Assembly: GCA_003599275.1 (NCBI GenBank)
Contig: QZJG01000060.1
Span: 24,854 to 88,853, forward strand
Direction: 5' to 3'
Length of the DNA: 64,000 bases
DNA from: Nitrospiraceae bacterium
GTDB lineage: Bacteria; Nitrospirota; Thermodesulfovibrionia; UBA6902
Each line of letters starts with the position of its first letter. Within the stretch, counting starts at the first letter, position 1. Under the pieces are notes generated by a model. The model worked only from the letters and a program-made list of their open reading frames with translations. It was not told the origin of the DNA and did no database searches. Below, one piece after another: positions 57,376 to 60,048 of the stretch. The translations under genes and the position numbers were made by a program.

Positions 57376-57401
57376 AAACGTATTGATCTTTCTTGCTGCA
57401 T

Positions 57402-57977
57402 ATGGAAAAAATCCTCATCATTGACGACGACAGTGAGATGCAGTCAGTCCTTTCGGACATCCTGAAATCGGAAGGATACGAACCTCTCGTTTCAGGCGAC
57501 GGAAGGAAGGCCCTCAGGTATATCACGGACCTTTCCCCTGCCCTTGTTCTGCTGGATATAAGACTTCCCGGCATGGACGGTATGAAGGTGTTAGAGAAAA
57601 TCAGGCAGACGGACAAGAGACTTATCGTAATCATGCTCACCGGATACGGGGACATCAAGGACGCGGTCCAGGCGATAAAGATGGGCGCGTTCGACTATAT
57701 CACAAAGCCCTTCAGGAACCAGGAGATAGTATCGACCGTAAGAGACGCCCTTCTGGCCCGGCTCAGTTGTGACGCCCACGCGGTTACGCCACGGGAGAAA
57801 GAGGTGCTTGCATGGCTCAAGGAGGGGAAAAGCTCACGGGACATTTCTTTGATCCTTGGTATCAGCGACAGGACAGTAAATTTTCATATCAATAATGTCA
57901 TGCATAAACTTAACGCGGTAAGCAGGATGCATGCTGTAGCCATAGCGGTCGAAAAGGCAATAATAGATACGAGATAA
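57402..57977 (+). CDS. Response regulator, REC + LuxR-type HTH
   Basis: IIDDD, LLDIRLPGMDG, GAFDYITKPF; TPREKEVLAWLKEGKSS.DIS.ILGISDRTVNFH. Confidence 0.9.
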   Translation: MEKILIIDDDSEMQSVLSDILKSEGYEPLVSGDGRKALRYITDLSPALVLLDIRLPGMDGMKVLEKIRQTDKRLIVIMLTGYGDIKDAVQAIKMGAFDYITKPFRNQEIVSTVRDALLARLSCDAHAVTPREKEVLAWLKEGKSSRDISLILGISDRTVNFHINNVMHKLNAVSRMHAVAIAVEKAIIDTR

Positions 57978-57985
57978 AACAGGGG

Positions 57986-59236
57986 TCAAACAAGCAGGAC
58001 CTGAAGCACCTGATCGATCCTCTTCAAATTTCCCAGGACCTTTTCGCAAGCATCGCGCCCGACTTTGTGCGCCCTCGTCAGGGCAACAAATCCTGCAAGT
58101 CTGCTTTCGATTTCATCAACGGCCCCTTTTACATCGAGATCGTCGTTCATTTTCCGCTCAAATGCATTTGTAAGCTTATCGGGCGTCGCGGTTGTATCTG
58201 CTCCGCCTTTGGTCTTCCGGCAATTGCGGATCTCCTGCGTCATACTTCTGATCGAATCGATCCGTCCGGCGGCTTCCCTCAACCTGTCTCCGGTAAGGTC
58301 CAGTTTTTTCCTGTAGTGCTCCCGGACAAGGAAAAAGCGGACATGTTCAGCGCTAAACCCCTGCTTCAAAAGCTCCTGGAGATAGACTATATTGCCCTTG
58401 CTTTTGGACATCTTCGCGCCGTTGACGATCACATGCTCGCCGTGGAGCCAGTAGTGGGCAAACTCCCTTCCAAGGAGCGAGTCCATAATCGCCAGGGTAT
58501 AGTCATGGTGCCGGTAAAGATTGTCCACGCCCCCGCAGCAGATATCGATTTCGCAGCCGAGGTGTTTGGTGATCATGGCCGCGTCCTGGATGTTCCATGC
58601 TGGCCTGCCCCGACCAATGGCCGTGTCCCATGAAAAGCCTTCATTTCCCCTGCTCTTATCGTCGTGCCACAGAATGAAATCTCCCAGGTTCCAGCGCATG
58701 CCGGTGTAGGTGTCTCTCCGAAAGCGTCTTTTCTCTTTGGGCCAGCGGCCCATATCGAGGCCGAAGAGCCTGCCGAAGCCCTTGAATTTCAGGGGATCAA
58801 AGAATACATCGCCTTTATGCCTGTAAGCGTAACCCTTCTCTATCAGGCGTTCGATGAGATGGACCGCCTGGTCTACGCTTGTGGAAGATCTGGCGATATG
58901 CGGCGGAAGTTTTATTTTTAATGCTGCGGCATCAGTCATAAATTGTTCGGCATTGGGGGTGATAAGTTTTTCACGGGTCAGATTCTTTTCCCGTGCTTTG
59001 ACGATGGCCTTGTCCTCGACGTCGGTAAAATTGATAAGGCGCTGGACGTTGTATCCCAGATATTCCAGGTAACGCTGCAGGACGTCTTCGTAAAGGAAAG
59101 AACGGTAGTTTCCCACGTGGGGTCTTGCATAGATGGAAGGGCCGCATGTAAACATCTTTACCTCTTTGTCCCTGCGCGGCTTAAAGAGCTCTTTTTTTCC
59201 GGTAAGAGTGTTATAAAGATAAAGACTGTTTCTCAA
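57986..59236 (-). CDS. Cysteinyl-tRNA synthetase-like protein with altered active site and no anticodon-binding domain
   Basis: YNTLT..KE.F, CGPSIY, PHVGN, TDVEDK, DFILW and KMSKSKGN are present. GRPGWHIECSAM is replaced by GRPAWNIQDAAM and PHHENE by RHHDYT. The protein ends after the DALR helices (416 aa). Confidence 0.8.
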   Translation of the reverse strand: MRNSLYLYNTLTGKKELFKPRRDKEVKMFTCGPSIYARPHVGNYRSFLYEDVLQRYLEYLGYNVQRLINFTDVEDKAIVKAREKNLTREKLITPNAEQFMTDAAALKIKLPPHIARSSTSVDQAVHLIERLIEKGYAYRHKGDVFFDPLKFKGFGRLFGLDMGRWPKEKRRFRRDTYTGMRWNLGDFILWHDDKSRGNEGFSWDTAIGRGRPAWNIQDAAMITKHLGCEIDICCGGVDNLYRHHDYTLAIMDSLLGREFAHYWLHGEHVIVNGAKMSKSKGNIVYLQELLKQGFSAEHVRFFLVREHYRKKLDLTGDRLREAAGRIDSIRSMTQEIRNCRKTKGGADTTATPDKLTNAFERKMNDDLDVKGAVDEIESRLAGFVALTRAHKVGRDACEKVLGNLKRIDQVLQVLLV

Positions 59237-60048
59237 GCGCGCCTCCTGTTCATATAAATAAGATATTCCACATTCCCTTTGGGTCCTTTGATCGGGGACG
59301 GGGTCAGCCCCCTGACTTCAAGCCCCATTTCCTCCGATCCGCTCTTTATTGCTTCAACGACCTCAAGACGTTTGTCTTCGTCTCTGACCACTCCTTTGCC
59401 CACGTCTTTTTTCCCGACTTCAAACTGTGGCTTGATGAGGGCGATTATTTCGCCCTGCGGCGCGAGGAATTCCAGGACCTTAGGGAGGACCTTCAGGAGC
59501 GAAATGAATGATACGTCAATTGTTGCAAAATCAATGTTGCGATTGAGTAAGTCTTTTAATTTTTCAACTCTTGACTCCTGACTCTTGACTCCTGACTTTT
59601 CTTCTGCCCTCTGCCCCCCAATAATTTCCTCAAGATAACGTATATTCGTTTTCTCTAACAAAATAACGCGCGGGTCGTTTCTCAGACGCCAGTCCAATTG
59701 ACCGTAGCCGACGTCGATTGCGTAAACTTTTTTCGCACCGCGCTGCAGGAGGCAGTCAGTGAAGCCGCCCGTTGAAGCTCCGACGTCCATAGCGATTTTG
59801 TCTTTAACATCTATATCGAAAGTATTCAGCGCATGTTCAAGCTTGAGTCCGCCCCGGCTGACAAAGGGCATTTTGTTTTCTATTGCCAATGTATTGTCGG
59901 GGGCCATCAGCGCGCCTGCCTTGTCGGCAACAATCCCGTTTACAAGGACATTGCCTTCCATTATCAGGGCCTTTGCCTTTTCCCTGCTTTCGACAAGACC
60001 TTTGTCGAAGAGCAGTTTGTCGAGACGGATTTTTTTCACGGAAGACAT
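59233..60048 (-). CDS. tlyA: TlyA-family rRNA methyltransferase
   Basis: S4 domain RLDKLL..KGL.ESREKA, FVSRGGLKL, DVGASTGGFTDCLLQ, DVSFISL, LIKPQFE, GPKGNVEY. Confidence 0.93.
   Translation of the reverse strand: MSSVKKIRLDKLLFDKGLVESREKAKALIMEGNVLVNGIVADKAGALMAPDNTLAIENKMPFVSRGGLKLEHALNTFDIDVKDKIAMDVGASTGGFTDCLLQRGAKKVYAIDVGYGQLDWRLRNDPRVILLEKTNIRYLEEIIGGQRAEEKSGVKSQESRVEKLKDLLNRNIDFATIDVSFISLLKVLPKVLEFLAPQGEIIALIKPQFEVGKKDVGKGVVRDEDKRLEVVEAIKSGSEEMGLEVRGLTPSPIKGPKGNVEYLIYMNRRRA

Follow-up and report, generated by a model that had tools for sequence, protein, structure and literature searches.

A distinct family of cysteinyl-tRNA synthetase paralogues in anaerobic Bacteria and Archaea, with a remodelled amino-acid pocket and without an anticodon-binding domain

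The 64,000-nucleotide stretch of DNA analysed here, referred to as the window (Nitrospiraceae bacterium, assembly GCA_003599275.1, contig QZJG01000060.1, positions 24,854 to 88,853 of the forward strand), contains at 57986..59236 on the minus strand a gene derived from cysteinyl-tRNA synthetase (CysRS), which is read as a single open frame of 416 amino acids (aa) from a TTG start to a TGA stop. It is very probable that this gene represents a distinct, monophyletic and uncharacterised family which descends from archaeal-type CysRS, and that the window copy is intact, was acquired horizontally, co-exists with a normal CysRS and is positioned for translational coupling to its neighbour tlyA. With regard to function, we put forward more tentatively that cysteine or a close analogue would be adenylated by these proteins and passed to the end of an RNA.

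The preliminary description of the gene had reported a CysRS-like reading frame with HVGN, KMSKS, WNIQD, DICCGG and HHDYT motifs, and all of these are in place according to translation and to an alignment with Escherichia coli CysRS (1li5). The CysRS catalytic domain of Pfam (PF01406) covers residues 18-322 of the protein with 262 bits, and the NCBIfam cysS equivalog model TIGR00435 scores it at 316.2 bits, under the 340-bit cut-off of that model. The best match among solved structures is CysRS 8qhp (E 8e-72), followed by 1li5, and an AlphaFold2 model built on a 50-sequence family alignment is confident and compact (pLDDT 91.6, pTM 0.92), with a fold close to that of CysRS structures (TM 0.83-0.89, the best being 8qhp at 0.89) and to that of the CysRS-derived mycothiol enzyme MshC (TM about 0.80). 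The protein ends in helices: the MNDDLDV helix-bundle motif (residues 363-369) is followed by two more helices and the stop (57986..58150, minus strand, as are all features of the gene given below). Only 47 residues follow this motif, about 70 fewer than the approximately 115 found after MNDDFNT in the canonical CysRS of the same genome, and of the 466 positions of the TIGR00435 model the match spans 1-400; the protein thus lacks the anticodon-binding domain, as had been described.

E. coli CysRS selects the thiol of cysteine through a zinc site whose ligands are C28, C209, H234 and E238. In the alignment to 1li5, from which the residue equivalences were taken and whose motif coordinates were checked by translation, C28 corresponds to Cys31 (59144..59146), HIGH to HVGN (residues 40-43; 59108..59119), the alpha-amino-binding motif T68-DIDDK to T71-DVEDK (59009..59026; T71, E74, D75 and K76 are invariant in the family), W205-HIEC209 to W214-NIQD218 (58583..58597), DIHGGG to DICCGG (residues 231-236; 58529..58546) and H234-HENE238 to H243-HDYT247 (RHHDYT instead of PHHENE; 58496..58513), while the KMSKS loop is unchanged (residues 275-279; 58400..58414). 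The zinc-ligand positions accordingly read C, D, H and T, so that two of the four ligands are changed (C209 to D and E238 to T) in agreement with the preliminary description, and W205, the residue which reportedly hydrogen-bonds the cysteine thiolate in the E. coli structure, is kept as W214. Throughout the paralogue family C31, H243 and W214 are invariant.

A wider comparison of 70 family members with 98 canonical enzymes was used to define specificity-determining positions, namely those with a residue conserved in at least 90% of the family and present in no more than 5% of the canonical sequences. In the pocket, these comprise Y26F, T31S, Y152F, H206N, E208Q, C209D, P233R, E236D and N237Y, together with E238, which becomes T or N, and H224, which becomes S, A or C. 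Ten of these positions (the nine switches plus E238T/N) are invariant in canonical CysRS, where C209, H206 and E208 each reach 100% in the sequences compared, and carry another invariant residue in the family. A second family-specific block (W165, P166, F172, T176, an inserted G179, R181 and W182) lies in the CP loop, where the basic and aromatic segment WPKEKRRFRRDTYTGMRWNLGDF (58676..58744) stands in place of an acidic '..SGARVEVDE..' loop, as identified by specificity-determining positions, charge and loop alignment.

Not every difference from the E. coli enzyme is part of this remodelling, however. The canonical CysRS genes of the same archaeal genomes read CGPTVY..HIGN and DIHCGG, which indicates that HxGN and the second Cys of DIxCGG reflect the ancestry of the paralogue rather than rebuilding. 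Thus, of the rebuilt pocket that had been proposed, the WNIQD and HHDYT elements stand, but the HxGN and DIxCGG elements are normal for archaeal-type CysRS; HVGN as a degenerate HIGH motif was rejected, the Asn form being the usual one in that type, and so was the Cys of DICCGG as a replacement zinc ligand, the same Cys being common in ordinary archaeal-type enzymes. Moreover, full-length CysRS proteins with WHIED and HHECE or HHDCE exist (P0174, P0242 and P0264), so C209D by itself is not diagnostic and does not abolish a CysRS-type site. In these three proteins the zinc-ligand Cys seems to have shifted from position 209 to position 237, and P0174 reaches 487 bits on TIGR00435; a canonical Asgard CysRS (L156, Freyarchaeia) combines WHMEC with HHECE. 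Taken together, the alignments describe a thoroughly remodelled pocket, which may nevertheless bind a thiol through a metal site with the three ligands Cys, Asp and His, Asp being a competent metal ligand. An amino-acid specificity other than cysteine is plausible. The suggestion that the protein is an adenylating ligase for a different substrate is therefore upheld as far as the intact ATP-site motifs are concerned, but its second half is plausible only, given that C31, H243 and W214 are invariant.

The substitutions are neither unique to this genome nor signs of relaxed selection. The motifs P[AS]WN[IV]QD, D[IV]xCGG, HHDY[TN] and KMSKS are present almost without exception in the 120 closest database proteins, which are about 415 aa long and 54-63% identical to the window protein (45-63% across family members overall). 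The 50-sequence alignment, which spans Desulfobacterota, Spirochaetota, Zixibacteria, Bathyarchaeia, Methanoperedens, Hadarchaeota and one Asgard archaeon, has 68 invariant columns and a mean column identity of 58%, and the window protein has all 68 of the invariant residues. Judged from this alignment, the family substitutions are under purifying selection rather than the outcome of chance or decay. The family signature can be written as CGPS..HxGN, TDVEDK, WP(K/R)3xRFRKDTYPGxRWNLGDF, GRGRP[AS]WN[IV]QD, DIxCGG, RHHDY[TN] and KMSKS, without an anticodon-binding domain. In a scan of 1.84 billion representative proteins, sequences with WNIQD/HHDY[TN] rank at the top and are followed by a sharp drop to ordinary CysRS, and at least hundreds of metagenomic loci match both signature motifs. 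The family is carried by Desulfobacterota and further anaerobic bacteria and, among archaea, by groups such as Bathyarchaeia and Methanoperedens. Databases label the proteins 'class I tRNA ligase family protein' (NCBI) or, wrongly, cysteinyl-tRNA synthetase, and no description of a WNIQD/HHDY[TN] family was found in full-text literature searches.

In a maximum-likelihood tree of family members, bacterial CysRS, archaeal CysRS and other short CysRS-like groups, the family including the window protein forms one clade (SH-aLRT 100, stem 0.76) apart from all the others. One long branch inside this clade, P0152 (430 aa), reads SGP, HLGQ, FCIQE, RHEAS and RMTAR, so that both ATP motifs and pocket are lost; by its sequence it is likely a pseudo-enzyme offshoot of the family. 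This offshoot, which lacks CGP, HxGN and KMSKS, demonstrates that loss of catalysis does occur in the lineage, and it might be argued that the window gene too is a decaying remnant, a pseudo-enzyme or a non-catalytic regulator. We consider this very improbable, because the window protein keeps every family-invariant residue and intact ATP motifs, the 68 invariant columns hold over two domains of life, and the structural model is confident and compact.

The gene is not the housekeeping CysRS of the cell but a paralogue of it, as the preliminary description had supposed. An intact canonical cysS is located on contig 71 of the same genome (88.6% complete), with 572 bits on TIGR00435, a full C-terminal domain and the motifs CGITAY..HLGH, NITDIDDK, WHIEC, DIHGGG, HHENE and KMSKS; its product and the paralogue share 33% identity. 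In 17 further carrier genomes out of 20, the paralogue is likewise accompanied by a CysRS that passes the cut-off, the remaining three being incomplete assemblies. Some Desulfobacterales carriers have a third CysRS-like match (G049:C21:1103-2467, G053:C6:28458-29822, G059:C178:23585-24946 and G050:C117:117-1481) of 321-376 bits over model positions 1-457, within open frames of 760-785 aa.

The distribution of the paralogue is sporadic. It is absent from all 40 relatives examined from genus up to class level, which have only canonical CysRS (32-37% identity), and it is present in 16 of 300 sampled genomes of the phylum (5%). This bears on whether the protein could be a genuine back-up CysRS, which would charge tRNA-Cys when oxidant or metal stress disables the Cys2-His-Glu zinc site of the main enzyme. 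The retention of the catalytic motifs and of C31, H243 and W214, the existence of full-length WHIED enzymes and the stress-gene neighbours found in some lineages agree with such a role, and Asp in place of a thiolate ligand would presumably make the metal site less oxidisable. A ligand swap, on the other hand, does not call for changes in seven further invariant pocket residues and in the acceptor-reading CP loop; in addition, the protein is without the anticodon domain, a major identity reader for tRNA-Cys (PMC5389517), and the gene is found in 5% of the phylum and in none of 40 close relatives. Overall, a back-up role appears improbable.

A more specific precedent for a truncated CysRS that still charges tRNA has been described by Mukai et al. 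(2017, PMC5389517). The CysRS* of Desulfococcus biacutus, a second CysRS without anticodon-binding domain, is encoded downstream of selC* and selB*, and was described as changed in CP1 only, where PTVS replaces MSGA; enzymes of this type in some Desulfobacterales charge the selC* tRNA-Cys(UCA) for SelB*-dependent insertion of Cys at UGA. The present family shares with CysRS* the missing domain and an altered CP1 loop, and it is common in Desulfobacterota. Nonetheless, it is very doubtful that the window gene is a CysRS*: no selC*-like tRNA or selB lies beside it in the window or beside its homologues in 39 loci, its genome contains one tRNA-Cys(GCA) and one tRNA-Sec as its only tRNAs of these kinds, the PTVS motif occurs in none of 270 retrieved sequences, about 135 of which are family members, and the family extends to archaea such as Bathyarchaeia.

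A clue to the acceptor is provided by charge. The median pI and net charge are 9.0 and +8.6 in the family, but 6.1 and -6.9 in canonical CysRS. Among 14 same-genome pairs there are 13 in which the paralogue is the more positively charged partner (median difference +16.7), and the window protein carries +18 compared with -3.5 for the CysRS of its own genome. Nearly half of this excess is concentrated in residues 161-180, the loop WP(K/R)3xRFRKD, which is +6.9 relative to canonical CysRS, and it is the CP1 segment of CysRS that faces and reads the acceptor stem's first base pair (Mukai et al., PMC5389517). Positive charge gathered in this way beside the active-site entrance speaks for an acceptor that is polyanionic, for which the 3' end of an RNA is the simplest candidate. 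Other CysRS-type proteins without anticodon-binding domain are likewise very basic; several such lineages (P0139, P0140, P0146, P0154 and P0158, 405-413 aa) have canonical or near-canonical pockets and extreme net charges of +26 to +44, and P0139 and P0140, the two scored against TIGR00435, lie above its cut-off. Furthermore, the family gene has been exchanged on its own between Bacteria and Archaea at about 50% identity, and such transfer of a lone gene between domains fits a universal acceptor.

On these grounds, a mechanism can be sketched in which ATP and an alpha-amino acid would be bound and an aminoacyl-adenylate formed, as suggested by the invariance of the HIGH-type, TD.EDK and KMSKS elements. 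The side chain would be held in the remodelled Cys31/Asp218/His243 site, flanked by the newly invariant Asn215, Gln217, Arg242, Asp245 and Tyr246, and the remodelling of the Cys2-His-Glu site points to cysteine in another binding mode, or to an amino acid closely similar to it, as the substrate. The activated residue may then be handed to a polyanionic acceptor docked on the basic CP loop at the active-site mouth. Most likely this would be an acceptor stem resembling that of a tRNA, which would receive the residue at its 3' end and be recognised without an anticodon. The function would be an accessory one outside core translation, conceivably with some relation to stress. This transfer of cysteine or a close analogue to an RNA end is the reading that we prefer, although it falls short of being probable. 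It may also be extended to a further aminoacylating activity of strict anaerobes with switched specificity, in which a non-canonical sulfur amino acid, such as cysteine persulfide, S-sulfocysteine, cysteine sulfinate or homocysteine, would be held by Asp218, Arg242, Asp245 and Tyr246 and loaded on a tRNA-like stem with no anticodon being read; alternatively, the protein would be the committed ligase of an undiscovered cysteine-derived thiol. Such an extension, in either form, is fairly improbable.

Several observations weigh against an RNA acceptor. Anionic lipids or a phosphorylated metabolite might be bound by the basic surface just as well, and no published biochemical data for any family member were found in the literature searches. 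Linkage of the gene to a tRNA gene, to selB or to a translation factor was seen in none of about 40 loci examined: the window contains no tRNA, a single tRNA-Gly was seen among 39 homologous loci, and no selB-like cluster occurs among the neighbours. Instead, the recurrent tight neighbours are transporters, namely of the CNNM/CorC and MATE types and an ABC-2 pair, accompanied by scattered antioxidant genes. Neighbours of this kind fit a protein that acts on a small molecule or in association with a membrane better than one that acts on RNA, and the transporters in particular favour a lipid or a phosphorylated metabolite as the acceptor.

These neighbourhoods were obtained from about 135 family loci, whose neighbouring genes were clustered and counted after dereplication to about 57 groups. 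There is no universal partner, and many copies are monocistronic; no shared Fur/PerR-like inverted repeat was found upstream of the latter. A CNNM/CorC-type transporter lies directly upstream on the same strand in 7-8 of the approximately 57 groups. Within the phylum of the window, where the paralogue of 16 carrier genomes (L176-L191; copies 45-49% identical to the window protein) was located in 15 loci, a MATE transporter gene is directly upstream in 12, with gaps of 12-82 bp and differing outer flanks, and in Desulfobacterales an ABC-2 ATPase and permease follow directly downstream. In Bathyarchaeia a Bcp-type peroxiredoxin gene is found upstream of the paralogue at a distance of 6-8 bp, and in Methanoperedens one is found downstream; single cases include an Fe/Mn superoxide dismutase (4-bp overlap), a rubrerythrin, a DinB_2 protein (4-bp overlap), Usp, a diiron ODP protein and DNA polymerase IV. 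An oxidative-stress theme suggested by a first tally is kept only as a hint, as that tally was biased by seeds taken from the neighbours themselves; an unbiased Pfam tally, in which 150 open reading frames (ORFs) no more than two genes from the paralogue were compared with 150 ORFs at least four genes away from it, backs only CNNM/CorC (7-8 near, fewer than 2 far) and, weakly, AhpC/TSA (3 near, fewer than 2 far), with OsmC equally common in both sets. The neighbourhoods thus hint at export and stress. The closest homologue, P0002 (63% identical; L172:8683-9831), belongs to a run of genes on one strand that also comprises those for DNA polymerase X, LigA, DUF72, an isochorismatase and a bacterial eRF1-like (baeRF) protein.

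It is this context that lends weight to the main rival of an RNA acceptor, a tRNA-independent ligase comparable to MshC. Such an enzyme would couple cysteine, or an amino acid related to it, with a small molecule or lipid head group that bears an amine; its product would be exported or would serve in redox or oxidative-stress defence, and might, for instance, be an unrecognised low-molecular-weight thiol of strict anaerobes. MshC itself is a precedent with the same domain layout and a similar fold (TM about 0.80), operon-like exporter partners occur in separate lineages (MATE in 12 of 15 loci, the ABC-2 pair downstream, CNNM/CorC upstream), partners linked to antioxidant or thiol functions are present (Bcp peroxiredoxin, superoxide dismutase, DinB_2, rubrerythrin), C31, H243 and W214 are retained, and the low-molecular-weight thiols of most archaea are still unknown (PMC7278568). 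On the other hand, no recurrent GT4 glycosyltransferase, deacetylase or acetyltransferase (GNAT) partner emerged from the neighbour clusters or the Pfam tally, in which two GT4 matches were counted, and the gene is transferred on its own. Dereplication leaves the antioxidant association weak (AhpC/TSA in 3 of 150 near ORFs, OsmC no more frequent than in the far control), and the MshC model TIGR03447 gives the window protein 175.9 bits, far under its 485-bit cut-off. Lastly, the basic CP loop and pI are unlike those of canonical CysRS and unlike those of P0161 and P0236 (net charge of both about -3), two of the three top short scorers of the MshC model, which are themselves below its cut-off; P0161, P0215 and P0236 were rejected as MshC at 216-279 bits. 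In sum, an MshC-like ligase is an unlikely explanation, albeit one to be taken seriously beside the RNA-directed reading that we prefer.

The genomic position of the window gene reflects how it was acquired. Its start codon shares the tetranucleotide TTGA with the stop of the upstream tlyA (59233..60048, minus strand; S4 and FtsJ domains by Pfam, rRNA 2'-O-methyltransferase) and is preceded at 5 nt by an AGGAGG Shine-Dalgarno sequence (59233..59249). On the other side, a LuxR-type response regulator of a geopeptide cassette (57393..57977, plus strand) is convergent with the paralogue, the stop codons being 8 nt apart. In the same-genus genomes G005 and G008, which lack the paralogue, ispA-dxs-tlyA is followed by the LuxR regulator with the complete geopeptide cassette; the slot between tlyA and the regulator (L068:5551-7299 and L070:4922-6715) is occupied by three unrelated genes, all of them opposite in strand to tlyA, namely one for a 200-aa protein with a double zinc ribbon, one for a further LuxR-type response regulator and one Cys-rich ORF of 105-111 aa. 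In G003 and G004 synteny breaks off after tlyA. The best database matches of the window protein (55-63%) come from other lineages, the copies in its own phylum being only 45-49% identical to it, and the GC content of the gene is 51.5% compared with 47.6% for the genome. Because the paralogue is absent from all 40 relatives, because the copies of the phylum are more distant, because the slot holds other genes in the same genus and because GC content is shifted, we conclude that the gene was transferred horizontally and that the place where it entered, with tlyA on one side and the geopeptide regulator on the other, is a variable slot. The last six codons of tlyA (MNRRRA) are unlike those of the relatives (LKKKT), the six C-terminal residues being unique to this genome, which places a junction of the acquired DNA within the 3' end of tlyA. 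Around residues 142-165, this tlyA and four others of the genus carry a low-complexity insertion, about 23 residues long, which is absent from six other same-genus genomes.

Translational coupling to tlyA, which had been described, is hence real but local to this genome. A conserved link was rejected, as tlyA adjoins the paralogue at this locus only, and neither tlyA nor the geopeptide cassette neighbours the paralogue in any of the approximately 135 homologous loci. The variable slot implies that both linkages are local accidents of horizontal transfer. The same evidence decides whether the paralogue serves the adjacent geopeptide pathway for a ribosomally synthesised and post-translationally modified peptide (RiPP), for instance by supplying an activated amino acid to the peptide. 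What speaks for this is physical adjacency only, at 8 nt from the regulator of the cassette, yet the paralogue is on the opposite strand and coupled to tlyA, the cassette is found beside none of its homologues, and G005 and G008 keep tlyA and the whole cassette with other genes in the slot. A role in the RiPP pathway is thus extremely improbable, and the preliminary description was right to treat the link as unproven.

To our knowledge, only a few synthetase paralogues have known functions (MshC, GluQRS, CysRS*, HisZ and a few others), each of which revealed new chemistry or biology. The present family is large, strongly conserved over Bacteria and Archaea and confined to anaerobes, with sharply defined signatures in the pocket and the CP loop. 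In practical terms, a 'cysS' call that is about 415 aa long and contains WNIQD/HHDY[TN] ought not to be taken for a CysRS in annotation or in estimates of genome completeness, and the window gene, as a lone horizontal acquisition, is uninformative on the neighbouring RiPP system.

Among the known systems, MshC, the L-cysteine:GlcN-Ins ligase of mycothiol synthesis (TIGR03447; 3C8Z), is likewise derived from CysRS, devoid of the anticodon-binding domain and about 410 aa long, and it adenylates its amino acid outside translation. MshC keeps both Cys ligands, one of which is Asp in the window protein; moreover, the present family is found in anaerobic Bacteria and Archaea and not in Actinobacteria, and partners of the mshA/B/D type were not found in its neighbourhoods. 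Judged by score and by clade, the window protein is not an MshC. CysRS*, compared here through its published description, differs in that the loop of the window protein reads EKRRFRRD and has no PTVS, the pocket is remodelled and there is no selC*-selB*-cysS* locus. GluQRS (YadB), the glutamyl-Q tRNA(Asp) synthetase, is also a truncated class I paralogue without anticodon domain, encoded by a lone gene of patchy distribution, and it transfers an amino acid to a non-canonical RNA position. It descends, however, from GluRS and not from CysRS, and a modified-nucleoside target is neither known nor suggested for the window family, so it offers an analogy for mechanism only. The nearest relative remains canonical CysRS (TIGR00435; 1LI5/1U0B, 8QHP), especially of the archaeal type, with which the family shares its fold (TM 0.83-0.89) at 30-37% identity, the elements CGP, HxGN, TD(V/I)(D/E)DK, GRP.W, DIxCGG, HH and KMSKS, the stem-contact fold and the helical bundle. 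In contrast to it, the paralogue has no anticodon-binding domain, C209 is replaced by D and E238 by T or N, eight further invariant pocket residues are switched, the CP loop is basic, the net charge of the protein is about 17 units higher and the score lies below the TIGR00435 cut-off; its distribution is sporadic and driven by horizontal gene transfer, and nearly all carriers possess a real CysRS alongside.

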